A stretch of 64,000 bases of DNA from an uncultured delta proteobacterium (lineage in GTDB: Bacteria > Desulfobacterota > RBG-13-43-22): contig CAVQFQ010000018.1 in NCBI GenBank assembly GCA_963711835.1, positions 17,682 to 81,681 of the forward strand, in the 5' to 3' direction. The notes under the pieces are model-generated. The model saw only the letters and a program-made list of their open reading frames with translations. It searched no databases and was not told the DNA's origin. Position 1 is the stretch's first letter, and each line of letters begins with the position of its first letter. The position numbers were made by a program, and so were the translations under genes. Shown in pieces: positions 1 to 23,144 of this stretch.

Positions 1-525
1 GAGCTGGCCACCCATTTCCGGGTCTATCCGAATGCCATCCAGGACCACCTCAAGGCCCTGATACGGAAAGGATATCTGATCCGGGAACCCAACCGCTCCC
101 GGGGGCTGCGTCTGATCCCTTTTACCCGCTCTTTGCGTACCATCCCCCTCTATGGGGCCATCCCGGCGGGAGACCCCCTGCTTATCGAGGAAACCCCTGA
201 GGGCTATATGGTCCTGCCGGAAGTCTGGACCCGCGGGAAGGAGGTCTTTCTCCTCCGGGTCCGGGGAGAGAGCATGAGCCCTTACATCCTTCCGGGGGAT
301 CAGGTCATCGTCCGTCGCCAGGAGCACCTTCCCCAGGGGGCGGTGGGGGTCTTTCGCCTGGAAGGGGAAGTTACCCTGAAGCGCTACTTTCGCGAGAAGG
401 ATCGCGTCATACTGAAAGGGGATTCCCCGGAGTTTGTCCCCATGGTTTTGAAAGGGCGGGAACTGGCGGCTCTGGTCATCCTGGGCAGGGTGACCGGGAT
501 CTATCGTTCCGTGGAGAAAGGATGA
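1..525 (+). CDS. lexA: LexA repressor (5' end outside window)
   Basis: Frame 1 is open from base 1: ELATHFRVYPNAIQDHLKALIRKGYLIREPNRSRGL (winged HTH), IPAG cleavage site, RVRGESM (catalytic Ser), VTLKRY (catalytic Lys). Confidence 0.93.
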   Translation, partial: ELATHFRVYPNAIQDHLKALIRKGYLIREPNRSRGLRLIPFTRSLRTIPLYGAIPAGDPLLIEETPEGYMVLPEVWTRGKEVFLLRVRGESMSPYILPGDQVIVRRQEHLPQGAVGVFRLEGEVTLKRYFREKDRVILKGDSPEFVPMVLKGRELAALVILGRVTGIYRSVEKG

Positions 526-554
526 ATCAATGGTTTTGAGGGCTGCCTTGAAAA

Positions 555-1148
555 ATGAATGACCTGATTCCCTTAAAAGAAATTAGACGGCTGGCCTTAT
601 CCGGAGGAAGCATCCTCTTTTTTGGAGAGGCCATGTCCCGCCTCTCGGCCTACCTGATGGGTCTGCTGTCGGCCCGAGGGTCACCTCTTACCCTGGTTGA
701 TGCCGCCCAAGCCTTTGATCCCTATCGGGTAGCCAGGATAGGCCGCTTTAAGGGAATTCCCCCGCGCCTGCTCCTGGAACGTATCCGCCTCAGCCGGGCC
801 TTCACCTGCCACCAACTGGTAACCCTGCTCTGTGAGACCCTGCCTCGGGACGGAAGGAAAGAGCCCCTTTTCATCCTGGGTCCCTGTGGTCTGTTTTATG
901 ATGATCAGGTGGCCTTGAAGGAGCGGCAGGCCCTTTTCAAACAAGTACTCCGTTCCCTGAAAGGGTTAAAAGAAAGAGGCCGGAGGATTTTTCTCTTCCA
1001 GCCCCCGTTAGCCAGGCAAATCAAAACCTATTATTTCGGCCGGGACCTGGCCCGTTCGGTCCGCTGGGTTATCCGAGTTCAGTGGGCGAAAGAAAAATTG
1101 GAAGGCCGGCTTTATCCCTCCTTCGCCCTTCCGGCGAGAAAGGATTAG
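555..1148 (+). CDS. Inactive RecA/RadA-fold protein (ImuA/iRadA-like) of the PolB2 cassette
   Basis: LVDAAQAFDPYRVAR...LLERIRLSRAFTCHQL resembles the RadA/Rad51 core; no intact Walker A; lies between lexA and polB2. Confidence 0.75.
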   Translation: MNDLIPLKEIRRLALSGGSILFFGEAMSRLSAYLMGLLSARGSPLTLVDAAQAFDPYRVARIGRFKGIPPRLLLERIRLSRAFTCHQLVTLLCETLPRDGRKEPLFILGPCGLFYDDQVALKERQALFKQVLRSLKGLKERGRRIFLFQPPLARQIKTYYFGRDLARSVRWVIRVQWAKEKLEGRLYPSFALPARKD

Positions 1149-1150
1149 CG

Positions 1151-1426
1151 GTGGGACGGACCGTCCTGCCTTTCAGCCAGGCCTTGGAGCGAGAGTATGG
1201 AGACTGGAAGAAGTTCCGCCGCGGATTGCGTCGGGAGGACCAGGAGATTTTAGACCGGCTTTTCGACCTGGCCCGCATCCATGTCCAGGCCGGGGTCTAT
1301 GCCTCCCGCCCCTGGCCGTTGGAGACCATCCTGATCTCAATTCTCATTGAACAGGAAAAGGGCCTCCAGACCCTCCGGAAAGAGGTAACGGAAATGCGCG
1401 ACCAACTGCTCCATCTTGAGAAATAA
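1151..1426 (+). CDS. Small helical PolB2-associated protein (arCOG07300/PPB2-like)
   Basis: GTG start at 1151; MGRTVLPFSQALEREYGDWKKFRRGLRREDQEILDRLF matches my recollection of the MGRT..S...W..FRRALR.EDQ..FD.LF pattern of PolB2-linked small proteins. Confidence 0.75.
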   Translation: MGRTVLPFSQALEREYGDWKKFRRGLRREDQEILDRLFDLARIHVQAGVYASRPWPLETILISILIEQEKGLQTLRKEVTEMRDQLLHLEK

Positions 1427-1433
1427 ACAAGCA

Positions 1434-3740
1434 ATGCCTTCCCACGGCTGGCTTATTGATCTCTATGTCCGGGAAGATTTCCTGGCCCTCTGGTTCCGGC
1501 TCCGATCCGGGGAACTCCTTTGCCTGACCGATTCCTTTCCCTATCGTTTTTATGCCTGGGGAAACCCTTCGGCCCTCCGCCATTTGGAAAAAACCCTAAG
1601 ACCCTATTTACGAAATACGGCCTGGACCCGGCGGATCGAATTCTGGAGCGGGAAACCGATCTCGGTGCTGGAACTGGAAATCCGTTCTTTAGAGAAACTG
1701 CCCCAAGTTCAGCGATTACTGGCCACGTGTCCGGAAGGCCTTACCCTTTATAACTGTGACCTGAGCATCCCCCAGTATTATGCCTATGAGAAAGGGTTGT
1801 TTCCTTTATGCTCCTGTGAAATAGAGTGGGAACGGGGAAGCCTGAAGACCCTTAAGGTCTTGAGCTCTCCCTGGGATCCGGATGCCGATCTGCCTGAACT
1901 GAAGGTCCTGAAAATCGGCCTCACCGGTCATCCCCAGATCTCCCTGGACCGGGGGAATTCCATTCAAATTTTGCAGGAAGGTGTTTCGTTTGAAATAGAG
2001 GCCTCGGATATACCCGGGCTCCTCCGGAAACTGAACCATTGCCTGATGCGCCTGGACCCGGATCTGATCCTCTCCCGTCATGGAGACGCCCGCATCTTGC
2101 CTTTCCTCTGGAAGTGGGCTCAGAAAGAAAAAGTCCCTTTGGGCCTGGATCGGGATCCCCGGCCTCCCCTGCGGGCCAAGATAGGCCAAGGCCGCTCTTA
2201 TTTTTCCTATGGCCAGGTCCTTTATCAAAGCACGGCGTTCCCTCTTTACGGCCGTCTCCATATCGATCAGGAAAATTCCTTTTTCTATAAAGAAGCCGGC
2301 CTGGAAGGAATCTTCTTTCTCTCCCGCCTGACCAAGCTGCCGGTTCAGACCCTGGCCCGCGCCACGCCGGGAACGGCCATCACCTCCATGCAACTGGACC
2401 GGGCCGTCCGGAAGAGGATACTCATTCCCTGGAAAAAAGGTCGGCCCGAAACCTTCAAAACCGCCTGGGAACTCCTGGTGGCCGACAAGGGCGGGCTGGT
2501 CTTTCAGCCTCCCATCGGCCTCAAGGAAAGGGTGGCCGAAATCGATTTTGTCTCCATGTATCCCAGCATCATGGTCCGACACAATATTTCGCCCGAGACC
2601 ATGCTTTGCCGCTGCTGCCCGGAGCCGGTGGTGCCGGAGGCAGGCACCAACATCTGCCGGAAGCGGGAAGGGTTGGTGCCCCAAACTCTGCGCCCCATAT
2701 TGAAATTAAGGGATGAATTAAAACATCGGATCAAGACCGGTCATCCGAAAGGGCCTCTTTATAAATCGATGCGGCAGGCCCTGAAGTGGATTCTGGTAAC
2801 CTGCTTTGGCTATATGGGCTACAAGAATGCCCGCTTCGGCTGCATCGAGGCCCACGAAGCCATTACTGCCTTTGGTCGAGAGAAGCTGTTGCAGGCCAAG
2901 GAGTGCGCCGAAGAACAAGGTTTCCAGGTCCTCCACGGCCTGACCGATTCGCTTTGGATTCAGGCAGAGGGTTTGGATGAGACCAAGGTAGAAGACCTGC
3001 TGATCGCCATCCGGGAGCGGACCGGCCTGGACATCAGCCTGGAAGGGATCTATGACTGGATCATCTTTCTGCCATCCAGGGTCCGGGCCAGCCGTCCGGT
3101 GGCCAATCGTTATTTCGGGCTTTTCCAGGATGGGACAGTGAAAATCCGGGGGATCGCCTGCTGCTGCCATGACTCCCCGCCCTTCATCAAAAATGCCCAG
3201 AAGGATCTTTTGCTGACTCTTTCGGCGGCCAAGGATCGAGCGCATTTGGAGCAACAGGTCCCCAGCGTGCTGGAACGCCTGGAGGAATATGTTCTTAGTC
3301 TAAGAGATGGCCAAGTGCCGTCCCGTGACTTAATCATCCATCGCCGCCTAAGTCAAACCCTGGAGGAATATAAAGTCAATACCGCTTCCGTTCTGGCCCT
3401 GCAGCAATTAGAGGCCGTGGGTATCACCCTTTATCCGGGCCAACGGGTGGGCTACGTTTTGCGTGACACCGCTTCAGCCTCTTCTTCTGAAGCCGGCGTT
3501 CTTCCCGCCCCTTTCTTGGATGGAGGAGAATCTTACGACCGGAAGAAATATCTGGATCTCCTGCTCCGGGCCGCTGCTGAAGTTCTGGTTTCCTTCGGGT
3601 TAAACCTTAAAGATCTGGAGTTTAAATTTGGGTCTGGACCACCAAGCCAAACAACTGCAAGAAGAGGCCGGCGTTGTCATGACCATCTCGGTCGGGAGGC
3701 TTTCAAGGGTTTACAGCGAGCCATAAAGTTGTTAAGATAA
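1434..3740 (+). CDS. Family B DNA polymerase, PolB2 group
   Basis: Motif A IDFVSMYPSIM; motif B KWILVTCFGYMG (NS replaced by VT); motif C HGLTDSL (first Asp of DTD lost); degenerate exonuclease region. Confidence 0.9.
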   Translation: MPSHGWLIDLYVREDFLALWFRLRSGELLCLTDSFPYRFYAWGNPSALRHLEKTLRPYLRNTAWTRRIEFWSGKPISVLELEIRSLEKLPQVQRLLATCPEGLTLYNCDLSIPQYYAYEKGLFPLCSCEIEWERGSLKTLKVLSSPWDPDADLPELKVLKIGLTGHPQISLDRGNSIQILQEGVSFEIEASDIPGLLRKLNHCLMRLDPDLILSRHGDARILPFLWKWAQKEKVPLGLDRDPRPPLRAKIGQGRSYFSYGQVLYQSTAFPLYGRLHIDQENSFFYKEAGLEGIFFLSRLTKLPVQTLARATPGTAITSMQLDRAVRKRILIPWKKGRPETFKTAWELLVADKGGLVFQPPIGLKERVAEIDFVSMYPSIMVRHNISPETMLCRCCPEPVVPEAGTNICRKREGLVPQTLRPILKLRDELKHRIKTGHPKGPLYKSMRQALKWILVTCFGYMGYKNARFGCIEAHEAITAFGREKLLQAKECAEEQGFQVLHGLTDSLWIQAEGLDETKVEDLLIAIRERTGLDISLEGIYDWIIFLPSRVRASRPVANRYFGLFQDGTVKIRGIACCCHDSPPFIKNAQKDLLLTLSAAKDRAHLEQQVPSVLERLEEYVLSLRDGQVPSRDLIIHRRLSQTLEEYKVNTASVLALQQLEAVGITLYPGQRVGYVLRDTASASSSEAGVLPAPFLDGGESYDRKKYLDLLLRAAAEVLVSFGLNLKDLEFKFGSGPPSQTTARRGRRCHDHLGREAFKGLQRAIKLLR

Positions 3741-6605: not shown

Positions 6606-7049
6606 TTGATTGCCGTCGATGCTCTTCCACATCGTTTCCCTTTTCTGTTTCTCGACCGGATCCAGACCCTGATCCCAGGCGAGCAAGGCATCTTTTGTTT
6701 TCGGAGCTCGGCCGATGGTTATTATCTTTCGGGAAGCACCCCGCCTTCTTTTCAGCAGGCCCTCCTTTTGGAAGCCATGGCCGAGGGGGCCGGACTCATT
6801 TTGATCAGCGAGTCAGGCCAAAAGGATGAACCCGCTCCGGGGAAAGGCTATCTTTTGCGATTGGACCGGGTATTTTTTGAGGCCCTTCCCCAGGCCGGCC
6901 AGGAGATATGTATCGTTGTGAATAAAAAAATGGTCTTCGGGCAGATGGTCCAATTTCAGGCTCAGGCGAAATCCGGGGACGTCGTTGTCGCCCGGGCAGA
7001 ACTCACCTTGTGGCGCGAACCAAGGGAACAGGGTCAGGAGGATCGTTGA
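6606..7049 (+). CDS. FabZ/FabA-like hot-dog dehydratase, degenerate
   Basis: LPHRFPFLFLDRI N-terminal signature and LLLEAMAE helix; the HFP catalytic His is not visible. Confidence 0.75.
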   Translation: MIAVDALPHRFPFLFLDRIQTLIPGEQGIFCFRSSADGYYLSGSTPPSFQQALLLEAMAEGAGLILISESGQKDEPAPGKGYLLRLDRVFFEALPQAGQEICIVVNKKMVFGQMVQFQAQAKSGDVVVARAELTLWREPREQGQEDR

Positions 7050-7774
7050 AAGTCGGTTTGCTTATCCCGGCCTATAATGTTGAAGATCAGATCGGCGCCG
7101 TTATCGAGGGTGCCCGGCCCTGGGTGGATGGAATTTTGGTCCTGGACGACGGTTCCTCGGACCATACCCGCGAAAAGGCCTTAGGTCTGGGGACGGAAGT
7201 CATATCGAATAAGCCTAATCGAGGGAAGGGGTATGCCTTGAAGCAAGGTTTTGCCTATTTCCGTTTTCATGGGTTTGAGACCATACTGACCATAGATGGC
7301 GATGGACAGCATGACCCCCGATATATCCCCCACTTTCTCGAGGCCTATAAAAAGGGAAAGGCCCAGGTCATTATCGGGTCCCGAATGGAAGAAGGTTCAA
7401 AAATACCCAAAGCCCGCTATGTTCTCAACCTGATCGGGACCTACTGCCTTTCCTGGGCTACCGGACAATATGTCCCCGATTCCCAGAGCGGCTATCGTCT
7501 CTATGAGACCAAAGCCTTGGAGGGTTTATCCTTGAAAGATAACCGGTTCGCCCTGGAAACCGAAGTATTGATCAAGCTGGCCAAACGAGGTTGTGTCTTT
7601 TCCTCTATCCCCATCCCGGCTATTTATAATGAGGTCCGGCAGGCTTCTAATTTCCGGCCGGTGAAAGACATCTATCAGATCAGCATGTTGGTCCTAAGGA
7701 GTATTTTTTGGAAACGAGAAACCCCGCGGCCGAAAGGAACGTTCCTGTTGCCCTTTCGCCGGCGATTCGGTTGA
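7046..7774 (+). CDS. Glycosyltransferase family 2 (DPM1-like)
   Basis: LIPAYN, VLDDGSSD, NRGKG, IDGDGQHDP, DSQSGYR; TTG start overlaps the upstream stop. Confidence 0.9.
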   Translation: MKVGLLIPAYNVEDQIGAVIEGARPWVDGILVLDDGSSDHTREKALGLGTEVISNKPNRGKGYALKQGFAYFRFHGFETILTIDGDGQHDPRYIPHFLEAYKKGKAQVIIGSRMEEGSKIPKARYVLNLIGTYCLSWATGQYVPDSQSGYRLYETKALEGLSLKDNRFALETEVLIKLAKRGCVFSSIPIPAIYNEVRQASNFRPVKDIYQISMLVLRSIFWKRETPRPKGTFLLPFRRRFG

Positions 7775-7778
7775 AGCG

Positions 7779-9002
7779 GTGGAGAAAAGAAAAGCCGTTA
7801 TAACCGGCATCGGGGTGGTCACCTCCATCGGAACAAACCGCCGGGAGTTCTGGCAAAACCTTATCGCCGGCAAGACCGGTATCGGCCGGATAGACCTGTT
7901 TGATACGGCCCAATACCGAGTCACGATTGCCGCCCAGGCCAGGGGTTTTTCGGGCCGGGAGCACTTTACCTCGCGGGAATGCCGGCGGCTGTCCCGCTCC
8001 GACCTCCTGGGCCTGGTGGCAGCCCGGGAAGCCCTGGAAGAGATCCCCTTTAACACCCCGGCCCTTCCTCCCGACCGGATAGCCGTTGTCTTGGGCGCTG
8101 GAGCAGGGGGGATCTATCCGGCTGAAATCTATCGTCAGGACCTTTATCGTCATAAAAAACCGCGCTATCCTTCTTTTCTGCTTTCGTTTCCCATGTGCAG
8201 TCTGACCGATCATATCGGCAACCGCTGGGGCCTGACCGGTCCCCGGGCCACTATTGATACGGCCTGTTCCTCGACCATCACGGCCATCGGACTCGGTTTG
8301 GATTTCATCCAAAGAGACCAGGCTGATCTGGTCATTACCGGCGGCAGTGAATCCCTCTCGCAATTGACTTTTTCCGGATTTAATGCTTTGAAAGCCTTGG
8401 ACCCCGAACCCTGCCGGCCTTTCGACCGGACCCGGCAAGGGCTTTCTCTGGGCGAAGGGGCCGCCCTGCTGATTCTTGAAGAAAAGGAAAGGGCCCGGGA
8501 ACGGGGAGCTCCGGTCTATGCCGAGGTATTGGGCTATGGCACCTCCGGGGATGCCCATCACATAACGGCTCCCCATCCGGAAGGGCGGGGGGCGATTTTG
8601 TCTATGGAGCGGGCTATCGCCAGGGCCGGGCTTTCGGCCGATGATATCGATTTCATCAATGCCCACGGTACGGCCACCCCGGCCAACGACCCGATTGAAA
8701 CCAGGGCCATTAAAAAGGTTTTTGGAGATCGTGCCTATCGGATCCCGGTTACCTCCATTAAATCCTCGATCGGCCATTGTCTGGGCGCAGCCGGTGTTTT
8801 AGGGGCCGTCGCCGGTATCCTGGCCTTAGACCAAGGGGTCCTGCCCCCTACCCTGCACTTTAGGGAGCGGGATCCGGCCTGTGATCTGGATTATGTTTTT
8901 AACCAGGCCCGGAAAAAAGAGATACAAACCGTGCTTTGCAACGCCTTCGCCTTCGGGGGAAATAACAGTTCCATTGTCTTTTCAAAACCGGATTATGCAT
9001 AA
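7779..9002 (+). CDS. Beta-ketoacyl-ACP synthase (FabF-like, active KS)
   Basis: DTACSS (catalytic Cys), NAHGTAT, GHCLGAAG, FAFGG. Confidence 0.93.
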   Translation: MEKRKAVITGIGVVTSIGTNRREFWQNLIAGKTGIGRIDLFDTAQYRVTIAAQARGFSGREHFTSRECRRLSRSDLLGLVAAREALEEIPFNTPALPPDRIAVVLGAGAGGIYPAEIYRQDLYRHKKPRYPSFLLSFPMCSLTDHIGNRWGLTGPRATIDTACSSTITAIGLGLDFIQRDQADLVITGGSESLSQLTFSGFNALKALDPEPCRPFDRTRQGLSLGEGAALLILEEKERARERGAPVYAEVLGYGTSGDAHHITAPHPEGRGAILSMERAIARAGLSADDIDFINAHGTATPANDPIETRAIKKVFGDRAYRIPVTSIKSSIGHCLGAAGVLGAVAGILALDQGVLPPTLHFRERDPACDLDYVFNQARKKEIQTVLCNAFAFGGNNSSIVFSKPDYA

Positions 9003-10203
9003 CGCCGCGATTGTGGTGACCGGTATAGGGGTTATCTCTTCCTTGGGGATCGGCCGGGAGGTCTTCTGGAAACAGTTTCTGGAAGGGCGGACCGGCATCA
9101 GACCTTTGACGGAAATTTCGCCTTTGGAATCCCCTATAGACTTCGGCGGAGAGGTGCCGGGATTCAAGCCCAAGGAATATCTCTCCCCTTTGGTTTATCG
9201 CAAGATGGGCCGGACCTCCCGTCTATCCGTGGCCGCCAGCATAGAGGCCCTTAGTGATGCCGGATTAACCATCAATGAGGCTGGTCAGGACCGGATCGGG
9301 GTGGTCATGGGAACGGGCTATGGAAATTCAGGACTGACCGACGATTTTTTTTTAAGTTTCATGGAAGGGGGCGCCCAGGGAGCAAATCCCCTCCTTTTTG
9401 CCGACACCGTCCCCAACACGGCCGCCAGCCACATCAGTTTATATCATAAACTTCGGGGTCCTTTGACGACCTTTTGCCAGAATTTGATTTCCTCTGAACT
9501 GGCCCTGGCTTATGCCTGCCAGGTTCTCGATTCCGGCCAGGCCGAAGCCATGCTGGTGGGCGGGGCGGATGAGCTCTCTCCGATTCTCCTTCATGCCTTT
9601 TCCGTCTTTAAAGCCTTGAACCCATCCCCAAACCCGATCCTTGGTAAAGGGATCATTCTGGGAGAAGGGGCCTGTATATTAGTCCTGGAGCGGGCCGAAA
9701 AGGCCCTGGCCCGGGGGGCCCGGATTTATGGGGAGATCAGGAATTGTGTTTTAAACAGCGGGGTAACTCAACCGGTCCAGTTTGAAGGAGAGGGTAACGA
9801 AATGAAAAAGGCGGTTTCACGTTGCCTCAGCCCTGAAAATGAACCGGAAGCAGTGGAGTTGATCGGGCTTTCGGCCAATTTTTCTAAGGACCTGGACCGC
9901 CTGGAATATGCCGTCCTCAAAGAGGTCTTTGGGGCTAAACTCTCTCAAATAGCCTTATCCCCATTAAAATATTTCAGCGGAGAATTTGCCGGCATGGGCA
10001 CCTTGAGACTGGCGGCCCTGCTTCTGGCTATGAGGGATCAGGTCCTTCCCCCCAGCGTCAACCCTTCCGAATTAGTGCCTGGTAAGCCTTGGGACCGGGC
10101 CTTTATTCCCGCCAGGTCGGGACCGGTAACCCAGGCCCTATTAACCGGGTTTTCCTTTGGGGGAGGAAATGCCTGTCTCTTAGTGAAGAAACCGACCTAT
10201 TAA
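8995..10203 (+). CDS. Catalytically inactive KS paralog (chain-length-factor-like)
   Basis: KS fold (VVTGIG, LGEGA, FSFGG), but TACSS is replaced by QNLISS and both His motifs are lost; ATG overlaps the KS stop. Confidence 0.85.
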   Translation: MHNAAIVVTGIGVISSLGIGREVFWKQFLEGRTGIRPLTEISPLESPIDFGGEVPGFKPKEYLSPLVYRKMGRTSRLSVAASIEALSDAGLTINEAGQDRIGVVMGTGYGNSGLTDDFFLSFMEGGAQGANPLLFADTVPNTAASHISLYHKLRGPLTTFCQNLISSELALAYACQVLDSGQAEAMLVGGADELSPILLHAFSVFKALNPSPNPILGKGIILGEGACILVLERAEKALARGARIYGEIRNCVLNSGVTQPVQFEGEGNEMKKAVSRCLSPENEPEAVELIGLSANFSKDLDRLEYAVLKEVFGAKLSQIALSPLKYFSGEFAGMGTLRLAALLLAMRDQVLPPSVNPSELVPGKPWDRAFIPARSGPVTQALLTGFSFGGGNACLLVKKPTY

Positions 10204-14049: not shown

Positions 14050-14322
14050 ATGAAAGCAGCAACCGTATCCCAAAAGGGACAAATAGCCATTCCCAAAGAA
14101 ATCAGGGAAAAGCTTCGAATAAAAAGCGGCGACAAACTGGTTTTTAAAATCATTAAAGGGAAGATCACCCTGGAGCCGACGATCACCATTCCAAGGTCTC
14201 AGGCCTGGTTTTGGACCGATGAAGTTCAACAGAAAATAAAAAAAGTGGAAAAAAACTACCAGGCCGGTAATTTCACCCAATATGATGACCTCAACGATCT
14301 TAACAAGGATCTCAGCGAGTGA
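14050..14322 (+). CDS. AbrB/MazE-type antitoxin
   Basis: VSQKGQIAIPKEIREKLRIKSGDKL (AbrB fold), SQAWFWT C-terminal motif. Confidence 0.9.
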   Translation: MKAATVSQKGQIAIPKEIREKLRIKSGDKLVFKIIKGKITLEPTITIPRSQAWFWTDEVQQKIKKVEKNYQAGNFTQYDDLNDLNKDLSE

Positions 14323-14582
14323 TCCCGAACGTAATTACCATAGACCCTGAGTTTTTCTCCCAATACGAGGCCCTTCCTAAAACCGTCAGGAAAAAATTTA
14401 AAAAGCAATTGGCCTTCTTAAAAGACAACCCCAAGCACAGGTCCTTGCAAATTCACAAAATGGAAGGAACGGATTATTGGGAGTTTTATGTGGATAAAGG
14501 CTATCGGTGCATTTTCAAAAGAGAAGGCCATATGATTAGGCTGCTTTTTGTAGGCACCCATGAGTTGATCGACAGATTTTGA
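14319..14582 (+). CDS. RelE/ParE-family toxin
   Basis: 87 aa, NPKHRSLQIHKMEG..WEFYVDKGYR...VGTH; GTGA overlap with the antitoxin. Confidence 0.82.
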   Translation: MIPNVITIDPEFFSQYEALPKTVRKKFKKQLAFLKDNPKHRSLQIHKMEGTDYWEFYVDKGYRCIFKREGHMIRLLFVGTHELIDRF

Positions 14583-14730
14583 ATTATTTTCCCACCCTTA
14601 TTATTGAAAATATACTTTACGTTTAGATGCCTAGAAGTAACATATGGTTATCATGGTAAAACGACCTTTTTGGATTCATCTTGGGATAATACAGTAGTGT
14701 TATCCCGAATGATCGGAGGAAAGGGGTTAC

Positions 14731-15012
14731 ATGGCACAAATCGAGAGACAGCAGACGGTTCTTGACATCCTCTGGAAACTTGCGGGATCTGGTCGGCCTT
14801 AAAAGGCTTTTCTGGGAGGAACTTGAACTACGAGCGCGAAAACAAACCGCTCAGTATGCGCGGCTGGCCGGATATCGCCCGCAAGGCGCTGGTAGATGAC
14901 CCCACCCTGTTTGCCAGCGGCGGGGAGGATTGACCTGATGGTCTATGAGCTTTATGGGCTAACGGAGGAGGAGATTGCTGTGGAAGGCGTGGCGGGTAAG
15001 GAGGGGAAATGA
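14731..15012 (+). pseudogene. Deletion remnant of a type IIG restriction-modification gene
   Basis: Frameshifted N-terminus (..LKRLFWEE-LNYERENKPLSMRGWP..) joined directly to IDLMVYELYGLTEEEIAVEG, the typical C-terminus of Eco57I/TaqI-C-like enzymes. Confidence 0.65.
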
Positions 15013-15049
15013 GCAGGGGTGCGTCTATTGGCAATAGCCGTGGAGGCGA

Positions 15050-15980
15050 TTCTCTCTCCGGCAACACAAGGTCACCGGGAGTGAATGTGGTCAGTGTCCC
15101 GGCGACCTTGAGTCGCCGGACGCAAAATGTCGGTGCAGATACAAGGTCATCAGGATCCCTATACACTGCCCACAATCTCAAGCCGGCTTTCGCTCTCCAC
15201 TACGACTGGACCGGCTGGCCGACCGCCGGCACGACGTCTGCCCGCACAGATGCGCCGCTGTAGCGCGCGAAACCGCGTCCTTATGGGAAAAGGACGGCCT
15301 GCGCCTGCTTGAACCTCACGCCACGGCTGAAAAGGTGCAGATTCTTTTCAGCGTCACCCCGCAGGTGAGCCCTACGTTCTTCTGCCAGCGCGTCAAAGGG
15401 CGGCTGCAGCATGCGCTCCGCAAGTTCGGCACGCCGGTGGATTTCAGCCGCAAGGTGTCGTTCCGCAGTCTCGGCGAGAACACCTCCGACGTGGTCGAAA
15501 ACTATATCCGCGGCCAGGTCGGCAAGGGCGACTTCGCCGACCCGCGTTTTCGAGAGATCATGCGCCAGTTCACGATTGTCTCCGATGATGTGCGGCTGGC
15601 CGAGCCGTCGGAGTCCAACAGCGGGCGGTACTGGTACGACCTGCATCTCGTGCTGGTGGTGGCGGATCGTTTCAGGATCACCGCCCCCGAGCAGCTCGGA
15701 CGGATTCGCGACGCGGCTTTGGCCGTGGCGGCGGAGGGCGGCCACCGGATCGCGGCTTTGTCGGTGATGCCGGACCATGTCCATATGGCGTTGCGCGGGA
15801 ATATCGAGCGGTCGCCGGAAGAGATTGCGTTGGCGTTTCAGAATGGGCTGGCGCGGGCCGCGGGGTGCCGGGTCTGGCAGGATGGGTTCTACGTGGGAAC
15901 GTTCAGTGAGTATGATTTGGAGGTCATTCGTCGCATTGCCAGGCAGTCGTGATCTCCTGCCGGACAAGCCGGCAGGAGGA
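15050..15980 (+). mobile_element. IS200/IS605-like (Y1 HUH) element with tandem-domain transposase, 5' part frameshifted
   Basis: ORF 15335-15952 contains ENYIRGQ, YDLHLVLV, MPDHVHM and WQDGFY; upstream frame has YTAHNLKPAFALHYDWTGWP; visibly higher GC; flanking hairpins at 15099-15119 and 15954-15978. Confidence 0.8.
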
Positions 15981-16034
15981 TAACCCCAGCGAGCTTGTCC
16001 GACCGAGAGGTCAGGCCTTCCGATTAAATGGCTG

Positions 16035-22094: not shown

Positions 22095-22670
22095 ATGGAC
22101 TATACAATCCCAACCGAAGATAGACCGGAACCCCGAATTGAAGTGGTTCCCCCCTTGGAGGAGAAAATGAGGGGTCCTGGTTCGATGATCCCCTCACCCA
22201 AACCTTCTCCGAAGCGGTCCCCATTAAAAATTTGGGGACCGGCCCTGGCGATTGCCTTGATAGGGGTGGGTTTTGGTTTGTGGTCTTTTGTAAAAACCGG
22301 ACCGGCCACCGGGAAGACCGAAGGGTTTCCGGAAATAAAGGAATTAAAAGAAGGGATTCAGAGGCTAACTACGGAAGGGGCCGCTTTAAAAAAAGAGGTT
22401 GAAACCATAAAGGGTGAACTGGTGGGGGCCCAGGAACAAATAAAAGGGCTCAAAGAACAGGTGGTCGTTTTGGCCAAGAAGCCTGAAAAAACGCCCGAAA
22501 GAAAGGCGCCCCCCAAATCCATTTCCTATCGAGTGAAGAAAGGAGATTCCTTGGCCGCCATTGCCAAAAGATTCCGGGTACATCCGGAGGATCTGCGTAA
22601 ATGGAACCAAATTCCCCCCAGGACCGATGTTAAGCCCGGTCGTATTTTAGTCCTTCACCCCCCTTCCTAA
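22095..22670 (+). CDS. Membrane-anchored coiled-coil LysM protein
   Basis: One TM helix, a coiled coil, C-terminal YRVKKGDSLAAIAKRF LysM. Confidence 0.88.
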   Translation: MDYTIPTEDRPEPRIEVVPPLEEKMRGPGSMIPSPKPSPKRSPLKIWGPALAIALIGVGFGLWSFVKTGPATGKTEGFPEIKELKEGIQRLTTEGAALKKEVETIKGELVGAQEQIKGLKEQVVVLAKKPEKTPERKAPPKSISYRVKKGDSLAAIAKRFRVHPEDLRKWNQIPPRTDVKPGRILVLHPPS

Positions 22671-22679
22671 ATAAACCTC

Positions 22680-22883
22680 GAAGTTGCATAAAAATTGATC
22701 GATAACGTGTTCTTTGTCAATTAAAACGGTGCGTTCTAACGGTTTCAGAGTTGAGACCAAAGTTCACTCCAATTGAGGTTTAGCATTCTAAAAAGTATCG
22801 ATCAATTTTTACCCTTCGCGAAAGTCTGGGAAGTCGTCCCGCCGCGGCGGGATTCGCCCTGGACGCCTCGGATCTGCAACTTC
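22680..22883. mobile_element. MITE-like element whose right TIR is split by a 63-bp insertion
   Basis: Left gaagttgcataaaaattgatcgata; right tatcgatcaattttta[22812-22874]tgcaacttc. Confidence 0.65.
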
Positions 22884-23144
22884 CGAAACTTTTGCAACAG
22901 CGAGGTAAAGATACCCATGTTTTTCCGCCCCACCTAAAGTAATTGCAGGCCAAGAAGGCCCCCATATCTTAATAACATCTTGAAATTATAATATAAATTA
23001 TTTCCATCGGTTCTGGCCCGCTTTTAAAACCGGGCCGACCGACTCCTTGTGAAACCAATAAGGAAATTTTAAGGGATTTGGGCTAAAAAATTTTTTTGAG
23101 AAAAAAAGATTTTTTAGCTTGAATTTTACGTGGAAAACATTATA

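Follow-up and report, generated by a model that had tools for sequence, protein, structure and literature searches.

The subject of this analysis is a cassette of four co-oriented open reading frames (ORFs), lexA, iRadA (inactivated RadA), ppb2 and polB2, which occupies positions 1-3740 of a 64,000-nucleotide (nt) stretch of contig CAVQFQ010000018.1 from an uncultured delta proteobacterium. The whole stretch, here called the window, corresponds to G000:C18:17682-81681, in which G000 stands for the host genome (3.9 Mb, completeness 89%, contamination 6.4%). The genes follow each other with gaps of 29, 2 and 7 nt, as tightly as the first-pass annotation of this DNA had described, and are predicted to form a DNA damage-inducible operon. 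The features of the locus are the following, in window positions unless marked C18.

C18:17565-17580: palindrome CTGTAC-AAAA-ATACAG, putative LexA operator, between the -35 and -10 elements of lexA and 14 nt from its ATG
1..525, forward strand: lexA, 3' part, open at its 5' end; the full gene (203 amino acids, G000:C18:17595-18206) starts 87 nt before the window
555..1148, forward strand: iRadA, 197 amino acids, RadA/Rad51 fold, without N-terminal helical domain and without Walker A
1151..1426, forward strand: PPB2/arCOG07300, 91 amino acids, GTG start, MGRT...FRR...REDQ, with an MGRT arm conserved in an alignment of 21
1434..3740, forward strand: polB2, bacterial G2 group, 768 amino acids; ORF open from TTG 1416
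2484..2489, forward strand: D(K/R) motif D351-K352 (ADKGG), specific for PolB2/G2, invariant in 99 of 99 rows
2544..2564, forward strand: motif A DFVSMYP with catalytic D371; D371, S374, Y376 and P377 invariant in 99 rows
2934..2948, forward strand: motif C HGLTD(S) in the HxxxD form (first Asp lost), with H501 and catalytic D505, both invariant in 99 rows
3159..3167, forward strand: thumb motif Cys-Cys-Cys (GIACCCHD), where outside relatives have x-Arg-Arg

For the polymerase we prefer the ATG at 1434 over the TTG at 1416, because relatives start there and a 99%-identical database protein has 768 amino acids. Motifs A and C, as well as motif B (VTCFGY), read exactly as first noted, and the rows mentioned above are those of an alignment of 99 of the 121 available homologs, chosen by hand. 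The D(K/R) motif is the signature of PolB2, the G2 group of B-family polymerases (Kazlauskas et al. 2020, PMC7544198), and the HxxxD form of motif C is described for PolB2 (PMC8764526). The exonuclease motifs are decayed: in comparison with Pyrococcus PolB, DIET aligns to SLKT and YNGDN to RHGDA, and inspection revealed no D-x-E pair. The protein matches Pfam DNA_pol_B. Its best NCBIfam models, NF004416 and NF004418 (421 and 387 bits), both remain below their cut-offs and therefore name no subfamily, and Pol II models reach 54-69 bits. Among solved relatives the Thermococcales PolBs score up to 177 bits against 55 for Pol II, no solved PolB2 being among the best 60 of 76 PDB matches, and the best matches of the structure model (confidence, pLDDT, 85) are again archaeal PolBs.

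In a quick tree of 27 rows the polymerase falls together with three PolBs of haloarchaeal plasmids and 14 homologs from bacteria or phages (99% support in the Shimodaira-Hasegawa-like approximate likelihood ratio test, SH-aLRT, without bootstrap and with several long branches), separate from three Pol II, one T4-like and two haloviral enzymes. The haloarchaeal plasmid enzymes are called PolB2 by their motifs and neighbours, not by database label. The two signature motifs and this clade uphold the earlier assignment to an archaeal-type PolB2. The closest named relatives of the polymerase share 65-71% identity with it, and most of them bear the title delta proteobacterium or Thermodesulfobacteriota. 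Of 228 conserved columns, our PolB2 deviates from the consensus in 7 (median 4), and the ratio of nonsynonymous to synonymous substitutions (dN/dS) of the four genes is 0.07-0.20 in all seven pairs, with dS near saturation; because of these values PolB2 is not visibly decaying. Its last 30 or so amino acids form a low-confidence tail that is not present in relatives of the same family.

The two partner proteins likewise correspond to what had been noticed in the sequence. iRadA lacks GxxxxGK[TS] and has ILFFGEAMSRLS at the place of Walker A, while the RecA of the same genome keeps GPESSGKT. A profile search with iRadA retrieved archaeal RadA (E 8e-7), followed by DMC1/Rad51, and no RecA among 30 matches, and its structure model (pLDDT 90) resembles Rad51, RadA and DMC1 with a template modelling (TM) score of about 0.7. 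At the position of the GTG start of PPB2 a close strain has ATG. A Halalkalicoccus plasmid has the gene order cdc6-iRadA-like-PPB2-PolB, and hhalign relates PPB2 to the gene before PolB of this plasmid (99.4%, 34% identity) and iRadA to the gene two before PolB (84%). A divergent PPB2 (MGKT start, 38% identity) occurs in another genome (L083, G012:C185:50070-50318), with no iRadA or polB2 match within the surrounding 7.6 kb.

Comparison with 20 genomes of the same family yielded matches to polB2 in 17, iRadA in 18, PPB2 in 17 and lexA in 19 of them; lexA, iRadA and ppb2 are adjacent on one contig in 16, and three genomes contain, in addition, a lexA joined directly to polB2. The order iRadA-PPB2-PolB is found in distant bacteria, a Leptospira phage and a haloarchaeal plasmid as well. 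Because the order recurs in the family and in all of these, the four-gene arrangement is not due to chance, and the conservation elsewhere on which its first interpretation depended is confirmed. In the Leptospira LE1-type phage (KF114878.1, L086:3207-6259) a complete iRadA-PPB2-PolB2 unit, with PPB2 unannotated, follows an integrase gene, and its PolB2 ends in QLLLPF, a tail resembling a clamp motif; three further Leptospira phage records match the polymerase.

The partial lexA product scores 120.9 bits against TIGR00498 (cut-off 110.95). LexA has a helix-turn-helix domain and an S24 peptidase domain, and all of the motifs that we take to represent its Ala-Gly cleavage site (IPAG), serine (GESM) and lysine (VTLK) are present; it is the sole lexA found in the genome. 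The first-pass annotation had proposed a search for an SOS box upstream of lexA, and the promoter, which lies outside the window, indeed holds an operator-like palindrome: TTGACG and TATTCA are separated by a 17-nt spacer that contains CTGTAC-AAAA-ATACAG. CTGT-N8-ACAG is the core of the E. coli SOS box.

A palindrome is present in the lexA promoter spacer of 19 of 21 family lexA rows, as a CTGTAC box in four and a CCATAC-AAAT-GTATGG box in 15; the remaining two rows have a CCATAC box 170 nt upstream and a half-retained CTG box, respectively. The form of the box goes along with LexA residue 40, the start of the presumed recognition helix: this residue is Asn wherever the box is of the CTG form (five of five rows) and Gly or Ala in each of the 16 rows with the CCA form. 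Perfect CCATAC-N4-GTATGG sites occur in 17 of 20 relatives, in 15 of them as a single copy (a reversed control gave one site in 21 genomes), and of these 19 sites 16 lie before a located lexA, two represent one promoter, found at contig ends ahead of the start of a lexA, and one falls inside an ORF. The corresponding scan for CTGTAC-N4-DWACAG gave 18 sites, just four of them before lexA, against 17 reversed-control sites. With a matrix built from the boxes of three relatives, the G000 lexA promoter ranks first genome-wide (18.4 against 16.5 for the next site); ranks two and three are inside ORFs and rank four precedes a transporter-like gene. We therefore regard the palindrome as a likely LexA operator, judged from its position and conservation, on which the case has to rest since the bare CTGT-N8-ACAG is not enriched.

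No box was found before recA or dinB, where a matrix that includes the G000 box itself scores at best 6.3 (4 kb before recA) and 3.7 (0.8 kb before dinB) against 22.1 for that box. Because of this and of the single lexA, LexA looks dedicated to the cassette, that is, devoted mainly to the PolB2 operon and not to recA or dinB. Another compact cassette of the four genes, from a different part of the phylum (L041, G022), has a third form of the operator in its lexA promoter: CTGAAC-AGT-GTTCAG, located between TTGACA and TATAAT.

Judged by genes and motifs, the cassette belongs to a known, computationally described kind, the PolB2/G2 mutasome operon. The first-pass annotation had named the neighbourhood of polymerase, inactivated RadA and arCOG07300 as described for archaea and some bacteria, and a four-gene operon including lexA was in fact already named in Leptospirillum ferriphilum (LFML04_0990-0993; Makarova et al. 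2014, PMC4104785). Timinskas et al. (2025, PMC11791011) presented the phylogeny, modelled a PolB2-iRadA-PPB2x3 complex for 40 archaeal and bacterial sets, gave iRadA-PPB2-PolB2, including forms with interspersed genes, as the sole bacterial order, and reported lexA to be enriched beside bacterial polB2; in 2026 the mutasome was still termed predicted (PMC12926913). G000 shares with the Leptospirillum-type operon the four genes and their order, the MGRT arm, an iRadA without ATPase site, D(K/R), HxxxD and the decayed exonuclease. It differs in the replacement of the thumb Arg-Arg by Cys-Cys, in the extra tail of about 30 amino acids and in that no clamp motif was seen, and further in that a putative operator is identified, in two forms within the family and with no box before recA or dinB. 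Relatives of G000 also differ by the defence cargo between ppb2 and polB2, although interspersed genes as such are mentioned in PMC11791011. Neither the proposed operator switch nor the proposed cargo hotspot was found described in the open-access literature.

We thus interpret the locus, with a probability of about 80%, as an intact lexA-iRadA-ppb2-polB2 operon that LexA likely represses by way of the palindrome in the lexA promoter and that is predicted to encode a damage-induced, proofreading-less PolB2 complex extending primers past lesions. The gene order, the motifs and the palindrome between -35 and -10 are observed, as are RecA and DinB elsewhere in the genome. As in other members of the LexA family, the repressor would cleave itself in response to RecA filaments formed on damaged DNA and so free the operon. 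Three copies of PPB2, as a trimer, would then combine with a single PolB2 and a single iRadA into a heteropentamer, as predicted for homologs (PMC11791011), in which PolB2 docks on iRadA by a motif like that of RadA oligomerisation and one of the MGRT arms reaches close to the active site. By analogy with Sulfolobus Dpo2 and Dpo4, the single DinB of the host is the likely inserter opposite the lesion and PolB2 the likely extender, which would proceed without proofreading so that mutations become fixed. LexA, because it would serve mainly the PolB2 operon and not recA or dinB, would occupy the place of lexA2-imuABC in Pseudomonas putida.

Sulfolobus Dpo2, which is damage-induced and mutagenic and acts as an extender after Dpo4 (PMC8764526, PMC8721586, PMC7390963), shares the polymerase subfamily and partner genes, and the G000 host too has one Y-family polymerase; G000 differs in having LexA instead of Orc1/Cdc6-linked control and in its bacterial clamp context, and activity has been demonstrated for the archaeal enzyme only. 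The analogy to lexA-imuA-imuB-dnaE2 drawn by the first-pass annotation holds in part. Like lexA2-imuA-imuB-dnaE2(imuC) of P. putida (PMC3901139), the cassette is a four-gene unit led by its own LexA with an accessory protein of RecA fold. However, its polymerase is B-family, not C-family, and of archaeal origin, and there is no ImuB-like scaffold, i.e., no inactive Y-family protein; the cassette is an analogue, not a member, of this kind. The published model instead likens the complex to E. coli Pol V, with iRadA bound like RecA and the PPB2 arm placed like UmuD' (PMC11791011): a recombinase homolog attached via an oligomerisation-like motif and a small-subunit arm near the active site are the predicted common architecture, whereas Pol V belongs to the Y family and works with an active RecA. 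E. coli Pol II is, as predicted for the PolB2 of G000, an SOS-induced B-family extender, but a single-subunit enzyme with YGDTD and active proofreading that falls outside the PolB2 clade of G000.

The remaining polymerases of the host fit this picture. G000 has one PF07733 match (dnaE, 1163 amino acids), one Y-family match of DinB type (DLDAFY, SIDE) and one recA match; its dnaE reaches 718 bits with NF004225, which we take to be the DnaE2 model, below the cut-off of 939. No DnaE2, ImuB or UmuC match was found in this 89% complete genome, and the cassette itself holds neither a C-family DnaE2 nor an inactive Y-family ImuB. A Y-family match is present in 19 of 20 relatives, as a single or one split gene. 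Among 251 genomes of the phylum, PPB2 occurs in 36 and the NF004225 cut-off is passed in 16, with an overlap of 0 (expected 2.3, P 0.077, kin not being independent), and this lack of overlap suggests a replacement of ImuABC by the PolB2 cassette.

Several points weigh against the operon being a LexA-controlled, functional bypass system. Both conserved thumb arginines (R577/R578) are lost, which could weaken the grip on DNA, and in a loose pattern search neither PolB2 nor iRadA had a QLxLF-like clamp motif at its C-terminus; the clamp-binding motif is, however, found in only a fraction of the iRadA and PolB2 members and hence optional (PMC11791011). In 5 of the 17 relatives having polB2 the gene is frameshifted, stopped or fragmentary, some of which may be assembly errors. 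polB2 is often separated from the operator by cargo, and 12 of 13 polB2 loci without adjacent lexA have no box within 300 nt; the exception is G020, in which the separated polB2 retains a box with one mismatch and a lexA remnant. In G000, the bare CTGT-N8-ACAG occurs 21 times against 17.9 expected, and the TTGACG/TATTCA pair was read by eye and not called by the promoter scan. On the tree, which is weakly resolved, the match between box form and residue 40 reduces to some two or three independent changes. The quick tree does not include Sulfolobus Dpo2 or named PolB1 and PolB3 references. Finally, in agreement with the first-pass annotation, the open-access literature, to which our survey was confined (subscription papers being outside its scope), yielded no experiment on a bacterial PolB2.

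Among other explanations, a damage-induced complex may serve largely accurate gap filling or recombination-linked synthesis, with iRadA capping or loading on RecA-coated DNA, instead of mutagenic bypass. iRadA keeps the Rad51/RadA fold, and its best structural matches include Rad51-paralog capping complexes; the fidelity of Dpo2 on undamaged DNA is near that of a replicase (PMC8764526), ImuC acts as an antimutator in P. putida (PMC3901139), and fork-repair or regulatory roles have been proposed (PMC4104785). We nevertheless consider this improbable.

Alternatively, the operon may be under LexA control while the PolB2 of this lineage is weakened or dying, bypass being left to DinB alone. The replaced arginines, the lacking clamp motif, the broken copies and the distance of up to 10 kb between polB2 and operator in relatives would all agree with this. 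However, the catalytic motifs are intact, dN/dS of polB2 is 0.13-0.16 in all three pairs, and full-length ORFs are likewise present in database proteins of 99% and 93% identity. The thumb change, moreover, is a family trait: among the 25 closest rows eight have Cys-Cys and 17 Cys-Arg, while Arg-Arg is found in 73 of 74 other rows, so that the Cys-Cys-Cys is rejected as a private mark of decay, and at least one Cys in all 25 family rows fits a retained variant better than decay. A weakened or dying PolB2 is improbable as well. That lexA is a mere neighbour, with a palindrome for autoregulation and three downstream genes expressed independently of damage, is hardly credible: the cargo between ppb2 and polB2 in relatives has its own promoter-like site, and pieces of all four genes appear, as a weak point, in metatranscriptome contigs with no known damage, but the short gaps in G000, the family-wide linkage of lexA with iRadA-ppb2 or with polB2 itself and the general enrichment of lexA beside bacterial polB2 (PMC11791011) speak against it. 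The metatranscriptomes in question are three runs of one study (shares 0.26, 0.15 and 0.04), and their contigs differ by a few percent from G000, one of them running from the end of lexA to the end of ppb2; they are no evidence of transcription or induction, because neighbouring genes are likewise covered and there is no silent control.

If the cassette works as predicted, it would add to Pol V and ImuABC a third kind of bacterial SOS mutasome, one whose polymerase is an archaeal B-family enzyme; this idea is already in print. The G000 copy appears to be a practical construct for first experiments, because by its sequence it is compact, intact, under purifying selection and provided with a defined putative operator.

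The compactness of the G000 cassette contrasts with seven of the eight relatives that have ppb2 and polB2 close together on one contig. The gap is a few nt in one of these, and about 0.5, 2.2, 5.5, 8.4, 8.6, 8.8 and 10.4 kb in the others. The loci are:

L064-L068, L037 and L027 (genomes G016, G005, G007, G004, G009, G014 and G008): ppb2-polB2 cargo, 0.5-10.4 kb

The cargo consists of co-oriented, shuffled type II and III methylases and endonucleases, PIN, HicA, HepT/MNT and Fic modules, and the PADLOC candidates PDC-M11 and PDC-M30; GmrSD and PemK come after ppb2 in other relatives. An integron array was rejected as an explanation, as self-comparison of 19 cargo stretches gave no recurring attC-like repeat (Rfam and attC models were not among the searches), and no integrase was noticed among the 84 of 177 called cargo ORFs that were scanned, plus flanks. 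It is conceivable, if on balance doubtful, that the LexA of the family is a dedicated switch of the PolB2 mutasome, re-specified between CTGTAC and CCATAC operators by one recognition-helix residue, and that the ppb2-polB2 junction is a defence hotspot. As the hotspot would lie in a LexA operon, DNA damage would then co-induce the mutagenic polymerase together with a variable array of restriction-modification and toxin-antitoxin genes. The two operator forms provide a natural single-residue test of LexA specificity.

Additional copies and remnants accompany the cassette in some genomes. G020 (L031, L036, L042, L071) holds lexA-iRadA-ppb2 with a CCATAC box and two lexA-polB2 units with a CTGTAC box, of which one is truncated. 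A further polB2 of this genome stands alone after the remnant of a lexA, and two of the polB2 copies have a DUF72 gene nearby. In G000 itself, a locus divergent from ileS (C17:683222-685330, L082) comprises a 3' remnant of ppb2 and then an antitoxin-like ORF with a frameshift, genes for a PIN toxin and an N6/N4 methylase, and roughly 70 nt from the start of a second methylase. This locus is equipped with a TTGACA-17-TATGCT site of its own, together with a short palindrome, and its content matches cargo found after ppb2 in relatives. By its sequence, this remnant is the apparent trace of a second, lost copy.

The GC content of the cassette (54-56%) is close to that of the genome (about 53%). 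Upstream neighbours of the cassette are genes for an aldolase and a zinc dehydrogenase as well as a pgaABCD-like polysaccharide locus (G000:C18:9856-15231, L001:175-5550), which is outside the window, and downstream of polB2 follow ricT and an ORF that by our reading of the sequence resembles methionyl-tRNA synthetase. The site of the cassette is constant in the genus g4, where a gene that we take to be nicotinate phosphoribosyltransferase-like adjoins in 11 of 11 loci checked. A mobile element at the cassette was rejected on account of the near-genomic GC content, the housekeeping flanks and the fixed site in relatives.

Further along the window, positions 6606-10203 hold consecutive dehydratase-like, glycosyltransferase and two ketosynthase-like ORFs (translations read by eye), and positions 14050-14582 a small two-gene module resembling an antitoxin-toxin pair. 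The stretch 14709-15982 is 73-93% similar to DNA within the cargo of several relatives and includes a 205-amino-acid ORF that is transposase-like by eye. A repeat of about 260 nt, present in about 20 copies genome-wide, has 70-84% identity to a stretch just 5' of polB2 in G015:

about 22669-22906: repeat of about 260 nt; also on C4, C5, C6, C8-C10, C12, C14-C17, C19, C21 and C27

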